From a virus (taxonomy: Duplodnaviria; Caudoviricetes): a stretch of 35,689 nucleotides of DNA. The position numbers and the translations under genes are program-made. Positions 3,446 through 35,216 of this stretch are shown one piece after another (position 1 is the first letter of the stretch; each line of letters starts with the position of its first letter). Location of the stretch: positions 1 through 35,689 of the IMG/VR virus record IMGVR_UViG_3300035703_000245; one strand, 5' to 3'. The notes under the pieces were generated by a model. The model was not told the DNA's origin, did no database searches, and saw only the letters and a list, made by a program, of their open reading frames with translations.

Positions 3446-3474
3446 TTGCAAACCCGACCGACACAGATTATAGT
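3446..3474 (+). promoter_or_regulatory. Sigma70-type promoter for the terminase operon
   Basis: TTGCAA-17 bp-TATAGT with an A/T-tract UP-like element at 3423-3445. Confidence 0.7.
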
Positions 3475-3482
3475 GCGGCGCC

Positions 3483-3941
3483 ATGACCTTTTATTCGCTG
3501 CCATTCACGCCCGAGCGCGTCGAAGCCACCGAGGCGCGTCTCGAAGCCATCTATGAAGCTGCCAAGTACGGCCTGAAGGGCGACAGCCTCGCCTTGCGCG
3601 CTGGCCTCACCCCAACGCAGTACCGGCGCTTGCAGGAGTTCGACCCGCTGGTTGAGATGGCGGAACTCAAGGGCCGCGCTGATGGTGAGTGGCTGGCGGC
3701 CAAGACGCTGCACGACGCTGCGGCGGATGGCGACGCCAAGGCGGCGCTGGACATCCTCAAGCACCAGCACGGCTGGGTGGCCAAGCAGCAGGTGGACATT
3801 AACGTCGATCAACAGATTAGTGTGATCGGCGCGCTGGAGCGGGCGCAGACCCGCGTGATAGAAGGTATCTATTCGCCGGTAGATGCGTTAGAAGACCTGC
3901 GCCAAGCGACGGAGACGGTTGATGCGCAACGCGATGAATAG
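3483..3941 (+). CDS. terS: Terminase small subunit (probable)
   Basis: 152 aa helical protein at the head of the packaging operon; HTH-like N-terminus and ALDILKHQHGW motif. Confidence 0.7.
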   Translation: MTFYSLPFTPERVEATEARLEAIYEAAKYGLKGDSLALRAGLTPTQYRRLQEFDPLVEMAELKGRADGEWLAAKTLHDAAADGDAKAALDILKHQHGWVAKQQVDINVDQQISVIGALERAQTRVIEGIYSPVDALEDLRQATETVDAQRDE

Positions 3942-6804: not shown

Positions 6805-9057
6805 ATGGCGGACCCTACGGGCATTAATAAGGCGGGCGAAATCGCCAACGTGGGGTCTAACCCTGCCAAATCGTCGCGTGGTGACGACGATAAGATGGCA
6901 ACCATGCGCAGCCGTCTCCAGATGGCGATAACGGCCTACTCGGACACCCGCGAGGACGAGTTGGACGACCTGCGCTTTACGGCAGGCTCGCCCGACAACC
7001 AGTGGCAGTGGCCCGCTGACGTGCTCCAGACCCGCGGGGCGGTGCAGGGTCAGACGATCAACGCACGGCCCTGTCTGACCATCAACAAGCTGCCGCAGCA
7101 CGTCCGGATGGTGACGAACGAGCAGCGCCAAAACCGGCCCTCGGGCAAGGTCATCCCGGCCGACGACAACGCTGACATTCAGGTCGCTGAGATTTTTAAC
7201 GGTGTGGTGCGCCACATCGAGTACATGTCGGACGCCGACGTGGCCTACGACACGGCCTGCGACAATCAGGTCACCTACGGCGAGGGCTACATCCGCCTGT
7301 TGACCGAGTATTGCAACGACGATACGTTCGATCAGGACATCAAGATCGGCCGCGTGCGCAACGCTTTCAGCGTCTACATGGACCCCACGATCCAAGACCC
7401 GTGCGGCGCGGACGCCAAGTGGTGTTTCATCACCGAGGACATCCTCAAGACCGAATACGAGGAGATGTTCCCGGACGCTACGCCGATCAGCACGCTGATG
7501 GCGCAGGGCGTCGGCAACGAAAGCATGGGGCTGTGGCTCGTTGAGGACACCATCCGCATCGCGGAGTATTTCTACGTCGTCAACGAGCCGGGCGAGTTGA
7601 ACCTCTACCCGGACGGCACGACCAGCTTCACCGGCACGCCGGAAGACAATAACAATCGTGCCATGTTCGGCAAGCCCATCCGCCAGCGCCGGTCTGACCG
7701 CCGCAAAGTGATGTGGATGAAGACCAACGGCTTTGACGTGCTCGAAGAGCGCGAATGGCCGGGCAAGTGGATACCTGTCGTCCGTGTGGTCGGCAACGAG
7801 TGGGAAGTCGAGGGTCGCCTCTACATCTCTGGCCTTGTGCGCAACGCGAAGGACGCGCAGCGCATGTATAACTACTGGACCAGCCAAGAGGCAGAAATGC
7901 TCGCGCTGGCGCCCAAGGCACCCTTCATTGGCTATGGTGGCCAGTTTGAAGGCTACGAGATGCAGTGGAAGACCGCCAATACGACCAACTGGCCGTATCT
8001 GGAGGTCAATCCCGACGTGACGGATGGCGCGGGTAACGTCCTCCCTCTCCCGCAACGCGCGCCGCCGCCGTTGCCCCAGACTGGCCTCATCCAAGCCAAG
8101 ATGGGGGCTGCTGAAGACATCAAGGGCACCACGGGGCAGTACGACGCCTCGCTGGGTATTGGCGGCAACGAGCGGTCCGCGAAGGCCATTGTCGCCCGCG
8201 AAAAGCAGGGCGACACGGGCACCTACCACTACGTGGACAACCTCGCCCGCGCGATCCGGCACATCACCCGTCAGATCGTGGACCTGATCCCGAAGATTTA
8301 CGACACGCAGCGCATCGCCCGCATCATCGGCGTCGATGGCGAAGTCGGCATGGTCAAGTTCAACCCCATGCAGCCGGAACCCGTCAAGGAAGTCCGCGAC
8401 ATGGAGACGGGTGCGCTGATCGAGAAAATCTACAACCCCGGCGTGGGCACCTACGACGTGATGGTCACGACTGGCCCCGGCTACATGACCAAGCGTCAAG
8501 AGGCACTTGACGCCATGAGCCAGATTTTGCAGGCCAACCCGGCGCTCTGGCAGGTGGCCGGCGACCTATTCATCAAGAACATGGACTGGCCCGGCGCGCA
8601 GGAAATGGCCGAGCGGTTCAAGAAGATTTTGGACCCCAAGGTGCTGTCGGAGGGCGACCAGTCGCCCGAGATGATGGCTGCGCAGCAGCAGATCGAGATG
8701 ATGACGCAGGAGTTGAACCGCGTCACGGACATCCTGCAAAACATTCAGGACAGCACCGAGCAGCAGAAGGTCGAGATCGACCGCTACAAGTCGGAAATCG
8801 ACGCCTACAACGCCGAAACCAAGCGCATCGCGGCCGTCCAGAACTCCATGACGCCCGAGCAAATCCAAGACATCGTCATGGGCACCATCGCGGCCGCTCT
8901 CGACACGGGCGACCTGATCGACGGTGCGCCTGAGATGCGCGCGATGCCTGAAATGGCCGAAATGCAGCCCGAAATGGCGCCCATGATGCCCGAAGGGCAG
9001 ATGATGCCGGAAGAACCTATGATGCCCGAAGGACCGATTGAAAATGAGCCAATGTAA
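6805..9057 (+). CDS. Portal protein, P22 gp1-like
   Basis: 750 aa; RPCLTINKL, GLVRNAKDAQRMYNYW, YDVMVTTGPGYMTKRQEA and a C-terminal coiled coil. Confidence 0.92.
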   Translation: MADPTGINKAGEIANVGSNPAKSSRGDDDKMATMRSRLQMAITAYSDTREDELDDLRFTAGSPDNQWQWPADVLQTRGAVQGQTINARPCLTINKLPQHVRMVTNEQRQNRPSGKVIPADDNADIQVAEIFNGVVRHIEYMSDADVAYDTACDNQVTYGEGYIRLLTEYCNDDTFDQDIKIGRVRNAFSVYMDPTIQDPCGADAKWCFITEDILKTEYEEMFPDATPISTLMAQGVGNESMGLWLVEDTIRIAEYFYVVNEPGELNLYPDGTTSFTGTPEDNNNRAMFGKPIRQRRSDRRKVMWMKTNGFDVLEEREWPGKWIPVVRVVGNEWEVEGRLYISGLVRNAKDAQRMYNYWTSQEAEMLALAPKAPFIGYGGQFEGYEMQWKTANTTNWPYLEVNPDVTDGAGNVLPLPQRAPPPLPQTGLIQAKMGAAEDIKGTTGQYDASLGIGGNERSAKAIVAREKQGDTGTYHYVDNLARAIRHITRQIVDLIPKIYDTQRIARIIGVDGEVGMVKFNPMQPEPVKEVRDMETGALIEKIYNPGVGTYDVMVTTGPGYMTKRQEALDAMSQILQANPALWQVAGDLFIKNMDWPGAQEMAERFKKILDPKVLSEGDQSPEMMAAQQQIEMMTQELNRVTDILQNIQDSTEQQKVEIDRYKSEIDAYNAETKRIAAVQNSMTPEQIQDIVMGTIAAALDTGDLIDGAPEMRAMPEMAEMQPEMAPMMPEGQMMPEEPMMPEGPIENEPM

Positions 9058-9409
9058 CGAGTTCATCGGTATGCTGTTTCTGGCGCGCGATGTGACCCAT
9101 TCCGCGCACCTGAACACGCGCAGCTACGCCAAGCACAAGGCGTTGGGCAAATTTTATGGTCAAATCATCGACTTGGCGGACACTTTTGCGGAAGCTTATC
9201 AGGGCAAATACGGCCTGATTGGGCCGATTTCGCTGATGTCGGCCAAGAAGACCAACAACGTGCTGGAGTTCCTTGAGGGACAACTGGAAGACCTCATGGA
9301 AATGCGGTATAAGGTTGTCGAAAAGGAGTGCACCCCGCTCCAGAACATCATCGACGAGATTTTCGCGCTGTACTACGCGACGATCTACAAACTGAAATTC
9401 TTGGCGTGA
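9044..9409 (+). CDS. Ferritin/Dps-like four-helix protein (DUF5856-like)
   Basis: HSAHLNTRSYAKHKALGKFY...DTFAEAYQGKYG...NIIDEI...YKLKFL. Confidence 0.7.
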   Translation: MSQCNEFIGMLFLARDVTHSAHLNTRSYAKHKALGKFYGQIIDLADTFAEAYQGKYGLIGPISLMSAKKTNNVLEFLEGQLEDLMEMRYKVVEKECTPLQNIIDEIFALYYATIYKLKFLA

Positions 9410-26535: not shown

Positions 26536-26750
26536 TTAAGTTCCTGACGGCCTTGCTGTCGCTGCTGCACCGCATCTGGGTAGAGTGGGACGCAAACAAA
26601 CTTCGGCAGCAGGGCCGTCAGGAAGCCGCGAAGGAAGCAGCCGATGAAGTCCAACGGCAACTCGATCTGGCGGAGCACGCTGCTCGGCTTGACGATCCTG
26701 TGCGTAACCAGCGCCTGCGCAACCGTTTCGACGACGCCGCCGGCGGTTAG
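26532..26750 (+). CDS. Putative i-spanin (Rz-like)
   Basis: N-terminal hydrophobic segment then a coiled coil; follows the holin. Confidence 0.65.
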   Translation: MIKFLTALLSLLHRIWVEWDANKLRQQGRQEAAKEAADEVQRQLDLAEHAARLDDPVRNQRLRNRFDDAAGG

Positions 26751-26895
26751 TCCGTACTGCGCAGTGGCGCATCCCATTCGTTACGATAGTCGGATCGACC
26801 GGCCGGAGACGGTGCGCCAGATTGAGGCGCATAACTCTGTGTGGGCTTGTCTGTGCGAGCAAGACTGCCCCGCCACCGCTCCAGATACCAAATAG
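26644..26895 (+). CDS. Putative o-spanin lipoprotein (Rz1-like)
   Basis: Signal peptide with lipobox VTSA-C, Pro- and Cys-containing mature part; overlaps the i-spanin in another frame; start uncertain. Confidence 0.65.
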   Translation: MKSNGNSIWRSTLLGLTILCVTSACATVSTTPPAVSPYCAVAHPIRYDSRIDRPETVRQIEAHNSVWACLCEQDCPATAPDTK

Positions 26896-27109
26896 CTTTG
26901 CCGACTTCCTGCGCCGTGGCGTCCTTGTGGCCAGCGCGGCTGATGTACTTCAACGCATTCCCGCGACAGTAGCCGGCGAACTCTTCCGGCGACAGCTTGG
27001 CCTCGATGTAGTCGATGGCCTCAATCCCGCCGACCTTATAGTGGTCGGGATGGTTGACCATGTCCGCACCGGCGAAACGCACCTCGGGGTGCAGCGGCAG
27101 CCTAGTCAT
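26747..27109 (-). CDS. DUF3310-like protein
   Basis: DMVNHPDHYKVGGIEAIDYI...GNALKYISRAGHK...KAIWYL; ATGA-coupled start at 27109. Confidence 0.85.
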   Translation of the reverse strand: MTRLPLHPEVRFAGADMVNHPDHYKVGGIEAIDYIEAKLSPEEFAGYCRGNALKYISRAGHKDATAQEVGKAIWYLERWRGSLARTDKPTQSYAPQSGAPSPAGRSDYRNEWDAPLRSTD

Positions 27110-27297
27110 GCCTTGATCCTCTTCGTCAGTTCGCGCCGCTCGCGCATGGTGCGCAACTTGGACAGCCGCTGATGCAGCCGCCGGGCGATGGCGATGCGCT
27201 TGTGCTTGGTGATCTCCTCGTCGAGCATCCGCTCCAGCGTCGGCTCGTCGTAATCGGATAGGTTCACGGCAATTGTCTGCCACGATATCTTAGCCAC
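27106..27297 (-). CDS. Small basic helical hypothetical protein
   Basis: 63 aa; LDEEITKHKRIAIARRLHQR; overlaps both neighbours. Confidence 0.7.
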   Translation of the reverse strand: MAKISWQTIAVNLSDYDEPTLERMLDEEITKHKRIAIARRLHQRLSKLRTMRERRELTKRIKA

Positions 27298-30098: not shown

Positions 30099-30758
30099 AT
30101 GTCCAATGAAGTCACGAAGTTTGGCGGGGCCAACCTGCCGTCGGTTAAGTCGCTCTCCACGGCGCTGCGTTCGATCCAGAACGAAGTCGGCGCTGCGGCC
30201 AACATGGTCATCCTCAAGATGGACAAGACCGGCCACTGGGTGTTCGGCGCGGACCAGACCGAGGTCGAGGACGACAGCCTGTGGGCCGTCAACCCGTTCT
30301 CGTTCGTCCACGGCTACATCTGCTGGGGCGACGGCGAAGTGCTGGCCGAGAAGATGGTCGGCGTGGCCGAGCCGCTGCCGGAACTGGAGCCCGCTCCGAC
30401 GGCGTCCAAGCGCGGTTGGGAGATGCAGGTCGGCATGACGCTGGCGTGCACCAACGGCGAAGACGAAGGGATGCAGGCCCGCTACTCGGCCACTTCGGTG
30501 GGCGGCAAGAAGGCCGTGCAGGCGCTGGCTATCGCCATCGCCGAGCAGGTGGACAAGGATCAGGACAACCCTGTGCCTATCGTCCGTCTGCGCAAGGAGC
30601 ACTACCAGCACAAGTCGTATGGGCGCATCTTCACGCCCATCTTCGAAGTGGTGAAGTGGACCAGTCTTGACGGCGCTGCCGCCGAGGCCGAAGATAGCCC
30701 TGAAGACGACGCGCCCGAGGCCGACGCCCCGCGCCGTCGCCGTCGCGCAGTCGCGTAA
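30099..30758 (+). CDS. Putative single-stranded DNA-binding protein
   Basis: Between exonuclease and PolA; aromatic beta-rich core, YQHKSYGRIFTP, acidic tail. Confidence 0.65.
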   Translation: MSNEVTKFGGANLPSVKSLSTALRSIQNEVGAAANMVILKMDKTGHWVFGADQTEVEDDSLWAVNPFSFVHGYICWGDGEVLAEKMVGVAEPLPELEPAPTASKRGWEMQVGMTLACTNGEDEGMQARYSATSVGGKKAVQALAIAIAEQVDKDQDNPVPIVRLRKEHYQHKSYGRIFTPIFEVVKWTSLDGAAAEAEDSPEDDAPEADAPRRRRRAVA

Positions 30759-30765
30759 ACAGGGG

Positions 30766-30826
30766 GCGAAAGCCGGGGCGGTGCTTCCCTGCCGCCCCGG
30801 TGAGTAGCGGATGAAGTGAGGCATCC
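30766..30826 (+). promoter_or_regulatory. Structured RNA element in the polA leader
   Basis: 11 bp stem (30772-30782/30791-30801) with a GAAA/GAGUA internal loop; second stem GGAUG/CAUCC encloses the SD. Confidence 0.55.
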
Positions 30827-32794
30827 GTGACTATTCTTTGGTGTGATTTCGAGACGCGCAGCCGGTGCAATCTGCCCGAGCGCGGCGTCTACAACTACGC
30901 GATGGACCTGAGCACCGAGGTGCTGTGCATGTCCTACGCCTTCGACGATGACGAAGTGCAGACGTGGATGCCGGGGCAGCCGTTCCCCGAAGCCGTGCGC
31001 CAGCACAAGGGCCAGATACGCGCCCACAACGCCGCCTTCGAGCGGCTGATCTTCTGGTATGTCCTCCAGATCGACTACAAGCTGGAGCAGTTCTACTGCA
31101 CCGCTGCGCAGGCGCGCGCCAACTGCGCGCCCGGCAGTCTGGAGGACGTGGGCCGCTTCGCAGGCGCGTCAATGCGCAAGGACCACCGTGGCGCTCAACT
31201 CATTCGGCTGTTGTCTATCCCGCAGGCTGATGGCACTTTCCGCGAGGACGCCGACCTGATGGCCGAAATGGTGGCATACTGCGAGAGCGATGTGCGCGCC
31301 ATGCGGGCGATCAGTCAGGCGCAGCGGGAGTTGTCGGCCGATGAACTGCGAGATTATCACGTTAACGAGCGTATCAATGACCGCGGCATCCTGCTTGATA
31401 AACCTCTGGCTCTGGCGGCGGTGCGTTATGCAGAAACGGAAGCTGTCGAGATACAGGATATTGTTCGGGACGTTACTGAGGGGGTCGTCACGTCGGTCCG
31501 CAGCCCGAAGATGCGCGAGTGGGTTCTCGAAAGGGTCGGGCCGCAGGCGCTGAAGCTGGCGACTGTTCACAAGGACGGCGACGCCAAGCTGTCCATCGAC
31601 AAGAATGTGCGCGCCAACCTGCTGGCGCTGGCGGAGGAAAACCCGGATGAAGTCCCGGCGCAAGTGGCAGACGTTATCCAGTGTGCAGACGACCTGTGGG
31701 CGTCATCAGTGGCGAAGTTTGCGCGCGCGGCGGCTCTGGCTGATGAGGAAGATAGCCGAGTTAGAGGTGCGTTCGTATTTGCAGGAGGCAGCGCTACTGG
31801 CCGTGCTTCATCATTTGGATTGCAGGTCCACAACTTCCCCCGCCGCTGCGCCGACGACCCTGCACTGACGCGCGAGGCGATGGTGCGCGGGCACCAGATC
31901 GTCCCCAAGTTCGGCCGCCGCGTCACGGACGTGCTCAAGGGTATGCTGCGCCCCGCGCTGCACGCTGCACCCGGTAACGTGCTGGTGGTGGCCGACTGGG
32001 CCGCCATCGAGGCGCGGGTGACGCCGTGGGCGTCGAACAGCAAGAGCGGCGCGGCCAAGCTGGCCATCTTCGCCAAGGGCGAGGACGTTTACAAGCACAA
32101 CGCCGCTGCGACCTTCCGCGTGTCCTACGACGAGGTGGACAAGGACCAGCGCCAGATCGGCAAGGTGCAGGAGTTGGCGTGCGGCTTCGCGGGCGGCGTC
32201 GGGGCCTTCGCGTCGATGGGCCGCATCTATAACGTGATCCTGACCGAGAGCGAGAGCAAGCGCATGGTCGATGCGTGGCGGCGCGCGAACGGCTGGTCGG
32301 TGCCCTACTGGTCGAAGCTGGAGCACGCCTATCGCGCGGCCATGCGTAACGCGGGGCAGGAGTTCACCGCTGGCCGAACCACATATTTATTTGACGGCCA
32401 GCATCTCTGGTATGCCCTGCCGAGCGGACGTGTGCTATGTTACCCTTTCGCCCGCTTCAATGACGAGGGCGAACTGACCTACGCGAAGGCGTCGTGGAAG
32501 CCCGCGGCCGACGCGAAGGAGTGGCCTCGCGCCCGTCTGTGGCGCGGTCTGGCCTGCGAGAATATCACGCAAGCCGTGGCCAACGATCTGTTGCGCCATA
32601 GCCTGCGGCAGTTGGATGCGGAGGGGTTGGGCGTGGTGCTGCATGTGCATGACGAAATCGTGCTGGAAGTGCCCGAGGCGGACGCAGAGCGTGCCGCCGC
32701 CCGTCTGGTCGAGATCATGTGTCAACCGCCTGCATGGGCCAAGGGGCTGCCGCTGAACGCGGAAGTCGCCACTATGGTCCGTTATGGCAAGTAG
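30827..32794 (+). CDS. DNA polymerase, family A, with 3'-5' exonuclease
   Basis: Exo I DFET, AHNAAFE, YCESDV, ATGR, motif A DWAAIEAR, motif B RQIGKVQELACGF, motif C HVHDEI. Confidence 0.93.
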   Translation: MTILWCDFETRSRCNLPERGVYNYAMDLSTEVLCMSYAFDDDEVQTWMPGQPFPEAVRQHKGQIRAHNAAFERLIFWYVLQIDYKLEQFYCTAAQARANCAPGSLEDVGRFAGASMRKDHRGAQLIRLLSIPQADGTFREDADLMAEMVAYCESDVRAMRAISQAQRELSADELRDYHVNERINDRGILLDKPLALAAVRYAETEAVEIQDIVRDVTEGVVTSVRSPKMREWVLERVGPQALKLATVHKDGDAKLSIDKNVRANLLALAEENPDEVPAQVADVIQCADDLWASSVAKFARAAALADEEDSRVRGAFVFAGGSATGRASSFGLQVHNFPRRCADDPALTREAMVRGHQIVPKFGRRVTDVLKGMLRPALHAAPGNVLVVADWAAIEARVTPWASNSKSGAAKLAIFAKGEDVYKHNAAATFRVSYDEVDKDQRQIGKVQELACGFAGGVGAFASMGRIYNVILTESESKRMVDAWRRANGWSVPYWSKLEHAYRAAMRNAGQEFTAGRTTYLFDGQHLWYALPSGRVLCYPFARFNDEGELTYAKASWKPAADAKEWPRARLWRGLACENITQAVANDLLRHSLRQLDAEGLGVVLHVHDEIVLEVPEADAERAAARLVEIMCQPPAWAKGLPLNAEVATMVRYGK

Positions 32795-32807
32795 GGAAGG
32801 GATAGCG

Positions 32808-35153
32808 ATGAGTGAGGATCGCGCAAAGTTTATCGAGTTCATCACAGGGTTGGCCGACGTTGACGGCGAGACGGCCCTGCTGCTTCAGCAGAAGCCGAAG
32901 AAGGACGCCGAGGGCAACGTCATCTACCACGGCGACGGCGTGCCGCAGGCAGTGTTTCCGGCCTATCTGCCGGAGGCTGCCAAGATCAAGCAGGGGCAGG
33001 CGTGGTATGTGAACACCGGTTCGTTCATCATTGATCGCTTCACGGACAGCAAGCCGAGCGCCAAGGCCGAGAACTGCGACTACGTCCTGTTCATGATGCT
33101 GGACGACATCGGCACCAAGTCCAAGACGCCGCCCATCGAACCGACATGGATCATGGAAACGTCGGAGGGTTCGTTCCAGTGGGGCTACGCCTTCCGCGAA
33201 CAGCCGACCAAGCAAGAGTTCACCGCCGCGATCAAGGCGATTGCCGACGCGGGCTATACCGATCCGGGCGCGGTCAACGCCGTGCGCAACTGCCGCATCC
33301 CCGGCAGCGTCAACCTCAAGCAAGGGCGCGGGCTGTTCGAGGCGCGGCTGGTGGAGTTCCATCCCGAGCGCGAATACGATCTGCCCGACATCTGCGCCGC
33401 GCTGGGCGTGACGCCTGCCGAGCCTGACACCGCCCAGCACCGCCACGTTGCCATCCGTGACACCGGCGGCGACACTGTGCTGCAATGGCTGTCAGACAAC
33501 AATCTGGTTCTAACCAAGGTTAATAACGAAGGTTGGTGCGGCATCGTCTGCCCCAACCATGCCGAGCACACGGACGGCGCTCTGGAGGCCCGCTACAAGC
33601 CTTTGGATCGCTCGTTCTGCTGCTACCACGGCCACTGCCAGCACCTCGACAGCCGCACCTTCCTTGACTGGGTGGCCGAGAACGACGGCCCGCGCGTGAC
33701 CACGGGGCTGCGGGATGAGTTGATTGCCGAGCGCATGAAGATCATGGCCGACAAGATCATGCCGACCGAGGCCTTCCCTGACGAGGCTGCGGCGGTCGTG
33801 CGCGAGGTCGAGCGCAAGGAGGCCGGGCGGCTGGAAAAGGCCGAGTGGTTTGAGCGGTTCGCCTACGTCCAGTCGGACGACAGTTACTTTGACATGGTGA
33901 CGCGCCGCGAGGTGCCGCGGCAGGTGTTCAACTCTCTGTTCCGGCACGTTGAGTGCAAGTCCGTCCACAACAAGAAGCAGAAGATCAGTGCCTCCTACTA
34001 CTTCGACGAGCGGCGGCAGGAGTATGGCGCGAAGGCGCTGATCGGCATCACCTACGCTGCGGGCGAGGACGTGCTGGTGGCGCGCGATGGGCTGGTCTAC
34101 GGCAACCGCTGGGTCAACCACCGCCCCGATATGTCCGGCTCGGACATCATCCGCGACGAGGATGTCGAGCGGTGGCTGGATCACTGCCGCACGCTGGTCG
34201 AAGAGCCGGAGGAACTGGAGCACGTCCTCAACGTGATGGCGTTCAAAGTGCAGCACCCTAACGTCAAGATCAATCACGCGGTGCTGCACGGCGGCGACGA
34301 AGGGTCGGGCAAGGACACCATGTGGGCGCCCTTCCTGTGGGCCATCGGCGGTGAGCACCAGCATAACCGCTCGACCATCGAGACGGGCGGGCTGGAGAGC
34401 CAGTGGGGCTATGGTCTGGAGGCCGAGGTGGTCATCCTGAACGAGTTGAAGGAGCCGGAGGCCAAGGAGCGCCGCGCGCTGTCGAACAGGCTCAAGCCGA
34501 TCATCGCCGCGCCGCCTGAGACGATCACCATTAACCGCAAGGGGCTGCATCCTTATGAGATGCTCAACCGGCTTCAGGTCATCGCCTTCACGAATGATCC
34601 GCTGCCTATCACGATCCCGACACAGGATCGCCGCTGGTTCTGCATCTGGAGCCGCGCGCCGCGTATGACGGCGGCGGGCGCTGATGCGCTGTGGAACTGG
34701 TATAAGGCGGGCGGCTTCGAAAAGGTCGCCGCGTGGCTCTGGCAGCGCGACGTGACGCGGTTTAATCCGGCTGCTGCGCCGCCTGTGACCGAGTGGAAAC
34801 TGAACATGGTTGAGCATGGGCTGTCGGTCGCGGAGAGTTTCCTTGTCGATCTGATGCGCAACCGCATGGGGCCGTTCGTGCATGGTGTGGCGGCAGGGCC
34901 GTTCCACCGCCTGTGCGACACGATTGCGGCGGGTCACGTTCCGGCTGGCACGAAGGTGCCGCAGGCGGCGCTGCTGCACGCCTTCAAGGAAGCTGGATGG
35001 CGCGACATGGGCCGGATAGGCTCAACCGAGTTCCCGACGAAGAAGCACATCTTCGCCGATCCTGACGTGGCGGCGGGTGTCTCCAAGAGCGATCTGCGCC
35101 GCATGGTCGAGGGGGTTGCCTTGGACGGCGGAAAGGTGGTAGGAACGCGCTAG
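32808..35153 (+). CDS. Primase-helicase (RepB/AEP-like primase, Zn finger, DUF5906-like NTPase)
   Basis: MLDDIGTK, ETSEGSFQWGY, RIPGSVN; CPNHAEH...CCYHGHC; Walker A GDEGSGKD, VILNE, AFTN. Confidence 0.88.
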   Translation: MSEDRAKFIEFITGLADVDGETALLLQQKPKKDAEGNVIYHGDGVPQAVFPAYLPEAAKIKQGQAWYVNTGSFIIDRFTDSKPSAKAENCDYVLFMMLDDIGTKSKTPPIEPTWIMETSEGSFQWGYAFREQPTKQEFTAAIKAIADAGYTDPGAVNAVRNCRIPGSVNLKQGRGLFEARLVEFHPEREYDLPDICAALGVTPAEPDTAQHRHVAIRDTGGDTVLQWLSDNNLVLTKVNNEGWCGIVCPNHAEHTDGALEARYKPLDRSFCCYHGHCQHLDSRTFLDWVAENDGPRVTTGLRDELIAERMKIMADKIMPTEAFPDEAAAVVREVERKEAGRLEKAEWFERFAYVQSDDSYFDMVTRREVPRQVFNSLFRHVECKSVHNKKQKISASYYFDERRQEYGAKALIGITYAAGEDVLVARDGLVYGNRWVNHRPDMSGSDIIRDEDVERWLDHCRTLVEEPEELEHVLNVMAFKVQHPNVKINHAVLHGGDEGSGKDTMWAPFLWAIGGEHQHNRSTIETGGLESQWGYGLEAEVVILNELKEPEAKERRALSNRLKPIIAAPPETITINRKGLHPYEMLNRLQVIAFTNDPLPITIPTQDRRWFCIWSRAPRMTAAGADALWNWYKAGGFEKVAAWLWQRDVTRFNPAAAPPVTEWKLNMVEHGLSVAESFLVDLMRNRMGPFVHGVAAGPFHRLCDTIAAGHVPAGTKVPQAALLHAFKEAGWRDMGRIGSTEFPTKKHIFADPDVAAGVSKSDLRRMVEGVALDGGKVVGTR

Positions 35154-35178
35154 TCTCGTTTGCTCCGATGACTAGCGC
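35147..35178 (+). ncRNA. Candidate 3'-end small RNA hairpin with an anti-RBS loop
   Basis: 9 bp stem GCGCTAGTC/GACTAGCGC; loop contains TCGTTTGCTCCG, identical to 2728-2739. Confidence 0.4.
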
Positions 35179-35216
35179 AAACGCCCCGGCGGGCTCACTA
35201 CCGCCGGGGCGTTTTT
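35179..35216 (+). terminator. Intrinsic terminator between convergent operons
   Basis: AAACGCCCCGGCGG-N8-CCGCCGGGGCGTTTTT. Confidence 0.85.

Follow-up and report, generated by a model that had tools for sequence, protein, structure and literature searches.

The question raised by this locus is why a hairpin at the stop codon of a phage primase gene displays a 12-mer that recurs, as the complement of a ribosome-binding site (RBS), before the first early gene. A sequence-only reading had taken this hairpin and the terminator behind it for the end of the replication transcript, which would pair with several early RBSs and so couple early-gene shut-off to the replication operon. We analyzed the window, i.e., the whole 35,689-nt stretch of the virus record IMGVR_UViG_3300035703_000245, together with its relatives. 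The 35.7-kb record is ~95% complete and represents a podovirus-like phage with the gene order terminase, P22-type portal and capsid, ejection proteins, lysin, helicase, exonuclease (DUF2800), putative ssb (30099-30758; named by gene position, without a Pfam match), DNA polymerase and primase-helicase (32808-35153, + strand; DUF5906, and RepB_primase at the cut-off). A DUF5856 gene (9038-9409; ferritin-like according to its PHROGs label) lies amid the structural genes, and a DUF3310 gene (26747-27283) lies 3′ of the helicase. Leftward small ORFs span from 2726 to the left end, restart at the right end and converge on the element described below. A predicted early promoter (TTGACA-N17-TAGCAA, 2764-2792, − strand), which is a consensus match only, would drive this leftward block, and ORF 2568-2726 is the first ORF downstream of the site at 2792. 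The labels early and late are used here as inferred from gene content and position.

Anatomy and conservation of a predicted two-hairpin RNA

Judged from its sequence, the segment 35152-35216 (+ strand) is a conserved RNA gene of two hairpins, of which the sequence-only reading had seen half. The predicted small RNA of ~65 nt, recognized by its fold (z = −5.96 in the window), by covariation and by an alignment-based model that gave one strong match in the window, consists of hairpin 1 (35152-35173), hairpin 2, which is an intrinsic terminator (35179-35216), and a closing U run. The perfect 9-bp stem reported earlier (35147-35155/35170-35178) is present, as is the terminator directly 3′ of it (a 14-bp hairpin at 35179-35214 with a T run behind it); the five outermost base pairs of the stem fall upstream of the predicted start site. 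Of the claim that the loop displays the 12-mer, the match to early RBSs stands, but UCG is engaged in pairs with CGA, which leaves only UUUGCUC (35159-35165) open in the predicted fold; this stretch forms seed 1 (anti-GGAGCAAA). Seed 2 (anti-AGUGAG) is the loop of the terminator, GCUCACUA at 35193-35200. Rfam gave no match at 35147-35216 at E values up to 5 (4227 families, including c4, CI/SeqA-like, AbcR/alpha-r15, cuckoo and Weinberg phage motifs). The RNA was not found described in the literature searched; the supplements of PMC5737381 and PMC12197685 could list a similar one.

A sigma70-type promoter is predicted inside the 3′ end of the primase gene (35116-35145, + strand), with a −35 box TTGCCT (35116-35121), an 18-nt spacer ending in TGG and a −10 box TAGGAA (35140-35145); the RNA start at 35152 is inferred, 7 nt downstream of the −10 box. 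The pattern TTGnnn-N18-TAnnnn was found at a fixed distance directly upstream of the element in 76 of 80 sequences, and the other four comprise one with N17 and three with the −10 box only. In the 40 distinct versions that lie in frame, NTT and NTA codons for Val, Ile or Leu spell out the boxes, as follows by construction for sequences that match the pattern. The third bases concerned make up 13% and 4.9% of such codons elsewhere in the same primases, and given this rarity protein coding does not explain the 76/80 match. In the L070 lineage the promoter (TTGACA-N18-TATA) lies across and after the primase stop, outside the reading frame. T at −7 occurs in only 4 of the 76 promoter-like sequences, a scarcity reported for alphaproteobacteria (PMC7703639). 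Hairpin 1 starts at the predicted start site in most relatives. Because the promoter pattern keeps its distance in so many sequences, the RNA is likely a primary transcript from its own predicted promoter and not a processed operon end. Contigs of four of 19 listed RNA runs were compared, and none of the pieces listed spans the element. Together with the terminator (99.6% paired), sequence conservation gives the element a predicted promoter of its own and the intrinsic terminator of a trans-acting small RNA. The earlier view of the element as the 3′ end of the replication mRNA, coupling early shut-off to that operon, is not supported in view of the upstream promoter pattern and of the L070 promoter across and after the stop. 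Assignment to the processed, 3′UTR-derived small RNAs is not supported either, since the conserved promoter pattern lies directly upstream of the predicted 5′ end.

Two hairpins and a T run, placed after or across the primase stop, were present in 80 of 81 sequences (80 primase relatives and the window), the single miss being a locus that ends at a contig end. A plain alignment covered 43 of the 55 distinct sequences. Both partners have changed in 16 of its 18 pairs, a level reached by none of 500 shuffles; in the same alignment hairpin 1 is only 69.6% paired, because its register shifts. Both loops persist while the stems are rewritten with compensatory changes. This survival of the loop across the clade rules out the reading of the 12-mer as the leftover RBS of a deleted leftward gene. 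Minimum-energy folds of the 55 distinct sequences contain 73 G-U pairs on the + strand versus 15 on the − strand, and the + strand folds better than the − strand in only 36 of the 55.

In the primase tree the element carriers form one clade (support 100/98; 39 of 51 rows). The alignment-based model matched strongly in every member of the clade on which it was tried; in distant relatives (52-67% primase identity), which have a plain terminator or nothing, no match exceeded 30 bits. No close cultured relative was found, the best annotated record being 56% identical and without the element; the carriers are a group of uncultured freshwater-type phages. A pattern search with the terminator loop returned 94 loci in 66 distinct rows, of which 56 are the RNA element and 10 are unrelated terminators. 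Several distant relatives without the RNA (L246, L247, L248, L251-L253, L257, L258, L260-L262) have three to five tandem repeats of ~22 nt right after the primase stop, which look iteron- or origin-like.

Complementarity of loop 1 to early RBSs

The 12-mer of the sequence-only reading occurs exactly twice in the window, at 35156 and at 2728, and the minus strand of 2728-2739 is the RBS of ORF 2568-2726. The shorter matches given at 1393, 1796, 2459 and 905 are all present, each 5′ of a leftward ATG. That this reading saw no such motif before late or replication genes also agrees with our counts: TTTGCTCC occurs three times on the + strand and never on the − strand, so that GGAGCAAA precedes no rightward gene in the window. 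The number of 12-mer matches with at most two mismatches is at chance (four including itself versus 4.78 expected); their placement exceeds chance, as all three other near-matches are early RBSs in antisense orientation. When the window was scanned for pairing sites, early RBSs ranked 1, 3 and 4 among 728 candidate sites. Among 39 start regions of the window, the four best partners of loop 1 were the early genes starting at 2726 and 1386, the clamp-like gene and the early gene starting at 1791. Net cofold energies in the window were −12 to −20 kcal/mol for four early starts; the eight starts of late or replication genes that were compared gave 0 to −5.

The putative targets of seed 1 all lie on the − strand. 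They are the RBS of the first early ORF (2728-2739; 12/12 complementary), that of early ORF 1201-1386 (1390-1401; 12 pairs, one of them G-U), that of the beta-clamp-like gene 1863-2450/2456 (2453-2464; 12 pairs, two of them G-U, extendable over the start codon) and that of early ORF 1534-1791 (1796-1802; the ORF is DUF7249-like, below the cut-off). The weak match at the RBS of ORF 738-893 (905-909) is a generic SD outside the top 10 and a doubtful target. The clamp-like early gene (1863-2456) encodes a single domain (PF02767 weak; phrog_947) and was found in 21 of 50 relatives searched.

Across relatives, the 28 genomes with a GCUCC loop have GGAGCA in 100 of their 399 early RBSs, and the 13 genomes with another loop 1 have it in 10 of 129; these counts are approximate because early genes were called with a crude ATG-plus-SD rule, and helicase starts, which had been mis-called, were left out. 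The motif was absent from late starts in both groups (0/315 and 0/114, respectively), and 75% of early RBSs are without it. Within the early block the motif is far more frequent in the first, promoter-proximal half (54/144) than in the second (8/137), and it also occurs 5′ of the primase in 14 of 29 relatives. When the pairing of early RBSs with own and with foreign loops 1 was compared, the difference was significant over all 39 genomes (1/20000 permutations); it was weak within the GCUCC group (1036/20000, or 251/20000 after removal of the L070 lineage), all with kinship still included. Both target motifs, that of loop 1 and that of the terminator loop, hold SD cores (GGAG and GAGG, respectively), and any anti-SD loop would be expected to show some of this match. 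Taken with the conservation and covariation of the element, the gene-class counts bear out the central claim of a conserved RNA with a loop complementary to early RBSs.

Two genes in the window, for the small terminase (3446-3483, + strand) and a VRR-NUC protein (28895-28860, − strand), appear leaderless: promoter-like boxes end 7-9 nt 5′ of the ATG, without an SD, and the same holds in relatives. Such genes would escape an anti-RBS RNA.

The terminator loop, replication-gene starts and natural variants

The terminator loop (CUCACU) is a second conserved seed, absent from the sequence-only reading; CUCAC is kept while its stem varies. Two candidate sites for it were found on the + strand of the window. 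One is a hairpin 5′ of the GTG start of the DNA polymerase (30808-30827; z = −2.92), whose loop AAGUGAGG (30814-30821) holds the SD. The other is a near-invariant stretch of 18 nt around the likely true primase start (32805-32822, ATG at 32808), with AGTGAGG at 32811-32817; AGUGAGG here falls within codons 2-4 of the primase (GCG in 64/65 and CGC in 65/65 within the 18-mer). Among 105 distinct loci, AGTGAGG is at the primase start in all 66 with loop 2 and in none of the 39 without it, a split that the tree reduces to about one gain and one loss and that is mostly one clade boundary. AGTGAG between ssb and polymerase shows a similar distribution (57/58 with loop 2 versus 0/29 without). The stem of the polymerase-site hairpin is rewritten between relatives and the site stays in the loop; a hairpin at the primase start is not predicted in the window (pair probability 0.03 in an 80-nt context). 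A loop-2 site precedes the exonuclease in 20 of 37 relatives, the window not being one of them, and no site was found before ssb (0/40) or before late genes. Loop-2 pairing in the window amounts to 6 bp, and primase and polymerase ranked first by small margins (−8.8 and −8.7 versus −8.3). Since the terminator loop matches the starts of polymerase, primase and often exonuclease, the replication genes are probable targets of the RNA and not the driver of the regulation. Both loops are conserved, single-stranded seeds in the predicted fold and are complementary to translation starts encoded elsewhere. In the L022- or L026-type layout, and between ssb and polymerase in G001, G007, G014, G030 and G042, genes inserted before the polymerase take over the AGUGAGG hairpin, which stays beside ssb.

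Some lineages have changed the loops. In L028, L030 and L041, which are nested in the clade, loop 2 is gone together with the primase and polymerase sites, and loop 1 reads TTTCCCCT, the exact complement of their own primase SD AGGGGAAA; it is also opposite AGAGGGG in the polymerase leader. By sequence comparison, this lineage is one clear joint loss or switch of seed and targets. A derived clade with an inverted replication block (the L021, L061 and L068 groups, hereafter the inverted-layout clade) keeps loop 2 and its sites but differs in loop 1, and its early RBSs are of the AAGGGAAAC type; genome-wide and start-region scans of this clade found no convincing site for its loop 1.

Further variants were observed. 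Loop 1 of L061 and L063 forms 14 of 15 pairs (−15.3 kcal/mol) with the capsid RBS common in their clade (e.g., that of G010); the RBSs compared are those of relatives, as the L061 contig begins within the capsid gene and its nearest neighbours are at most 90% identical. Loop 1 may have been re-targeted to a late gene, that of the major capsid protein. RNA variants with a duplicated hairpin-1 module (~85-90 nt) occur in L265, L275, L297, L300, L312, L328, L341 and L350, and in seven of these eight the extra module carries GUCGCUUUG, complementary to a CAAAGCGA-like stretch before some primase starts. In the L070 lineage (e.g., L265, L292, G045-G048), many of the early RBSs near the promoter read GGAGTGAG, which complements the 3′ side of the 9-nt loop 2 of this lineage, and so loop 2 may cover early genes there.

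Proposed function, alternatives and known systems

We favor, with moderate confidence, a role of the ~65-nt RNA as a trans-acting antisense repressor: by accumulating, it would serve as a timer or feedback and lower the levels of early and replication proteins. Its transcription by host RNA polymerase would begin with infection, alongside that of its targets. Loop 1 would nucleate on unstructured early RBSs (GGAGCAA) and extend over the start codon, and loop 2 would make a loop-loop contact at the polymerase SD and pair across the primase start, often at the exonuclease start too. Ribosome loading would be blocked by both loops, repressing translation of the target genes. As the stable RNA builds up, early and replication proteins would be turned down, with late genes, which have neither site, still being expressed. 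The place of a protein repressor would then be taken by an RNA timer or negative feedback. From the complementarities, the RNA likely switches off both gene sets by base pairing, in phages in which no integrase or standard repressor was found.

The same RNA and the same pairing could instead serve immunity or dormancy, in a non-integrated carrier state or as a superinfection block like P4 CI RNA and P1 c4, which we think unlikely. Such an RNA would strike the first early genes and the replication initiator, the primase has a plasmid-type RepB domain at the cut-off, and hairpin 2 of many relatives has at its apex 16-17 nt that are nearly antisense to the primase start, as in copy-control RNAs. 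A tyrosine integrase (PF00589) was found in 0 of 33 genomes and HTH_3 (PF01381) above the cut-off in 1 of 33, i.e., no common HTH_3 repressor, a result that counts for the timer as well as for immunity or dormancy. However, no partition gene was found among 48 window ORFs scanned against PHROGs, none of 23 loci from bacterial genomes was an integrated copy, and the loops are nearly invariant, whereas the seeds of immunity or incompatibility RNAs are expected to diversify.

Plasmid copy-control antisense RNAs recognize their targets loop-first and are cis-encoded opposite them. One of them, RNAII of pMV158, is described as inhibiting translation of the replication initiator (PMC4485353). The RNA of the window, by contrast, lies 2.3 kb away at the other end of the gene, 3′ of the primase stop and on the sense strand, and has several putative targets. 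As described in PMC12197685, c4 of P1/P7 is likewise a phage-encoded, trans-acting RNA; its loop seeds pair around an RBS in mRNA of the phage itself and prevent translation, which for the window RNA is a prediction. Unlike the window RNA, c4 belongs to temperate phages that also have a protein repressor, and it controls a single antirepressor operon. The window RNA has two seeds for two gene classes and no Rfam match, and its phages have no tyrosine integrase or common HTH_3 repressor. CI RNA of the phage-plasmid P4 is also small, and by pairing at two sites it holds off the replication genes of the element that encodes it; unlike the window RNA, with its own predicted promoter and with translation starts as sites, it is processed from the transcript that it controls and causes premature termination (PMC4825925). 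As judged by PF00589 and PF01381, the temperate context of c4 and P4 CI was not seen in the 33 genomes.

Slightly less probable still is that the hairpins are the 3′ end of the exonuclease-ssb-polymerase-primase mRNA, or a processed piece of it, pairing back on the starts of its own mRNA and on early mRNAs. The terminator does end this operon, read-through lengthens stem 1 to 9 bp in the window, and the loop-2 targets are on the same transcript. The promoter pattern argues against it, being fixed in spacing in 76 of 80 sequences, maintained through rare codons and, in the L070 lineage, shifted out of the reading frame, as does the start of hairpin 1 at the predicted start site in most relatives.

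We consider it improbable that the RNA is aimed at host mRNAs or other host RNAs and that the phage matches are by-products of shared SD usage. Hairpin 1 is kept in the inverted-layout clade although no convincing phage site was found there, and the anti-SD loops of alphaproteobacterial small RNAs have many targets (PMC8844928). Yet GGAGCAAA-N2-8-ATG is rare in three alphaproteobacterial candidate host genomes of 3.3-3.5 Mb (2, 11 and 3 sites), a phage would not gain by placing the motif on its own first genes, and loop 2 and its phage sites were lost together. The small RNAs AbcR1/AbcR2 and NfeR1 resemble the window RNA in having two distinct anti-SD seeds, one of them in a 5′ hairpin loop, with their own target sets, and differ in being chromosomal, 114-121 nt long, with CUCCUCCC-type seeds and metabolic targets (PMC8844928); the window RNA has no sequence or Rfam relation to them, and its second seed is a terminator loop. 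A contig of a Sandarakinorhabdus MAG (L182:1-2676; 319 kb, beside rpsL-rpsG-fusA-tuf) carries a helicase-like ORF that ends in three tandem copies of the C-terminal ~95 aa of the phage primase. These copies are 75-81% identical to the inverted-layout clade (DNA 82%) and continue into a decayed hairpin 1. The RNA gene itself was not found in this incomplete genome at E 0.001. As sequence similarities, the copies hint at Sphingomonadales as hosts, which is a pointer and not proof, and the phage domain may have been captured for use as a decoy or sensor.

A role as DNA or protein signals, either single-strand priming hairpins for the RepB-type primase or operators with a minus-strand decoy for an RNA-binding protein, is very improbable: the RepB_primase domain, the complementary loops at either end of the primase gene, which lie on opposite strands, and the GGA motifs that the minus strand would show in both loops fit it, but a promoter and a U run flank the + strand, G-U pairs favor that strand, the sites cluster at translation starts and the element persists where the converging transcript is absent.

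In our preferred reading of a trans-acting antisense RNA, the element would work like c4 and P4 CI and is built like AbcR1/2, and it lacks the context that defines each of them. A broader idea, which we offer tentatively and hold for less probable than the timer itself, is that the RBSs act as barcodes read by one RNA, early genes being marked by GGAGCAA, replication genes by AGUGAGG and late or leaderless genes by neither, so that a two-loop RNA replaces a protein repressor or phage sigma factor. Loop 1 would then be re-programmable, having moved to the primase SD in one lineage and possibly to the capsid RBS in another, and being duplicated in a third. According to recent work, the functions of small RNAs in phages without an integrase are almost all unknown (PMC12197685, PMC10914365). 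For the RNA described here, seeds and putative targets can be named and natural variants with a loss or a switch exist, so that gene ordering in a small phage with only host-type promoters could be tested by reporters alone. It would be a compact natural design in which two gene sets are silenced by one 65-nt RNA.
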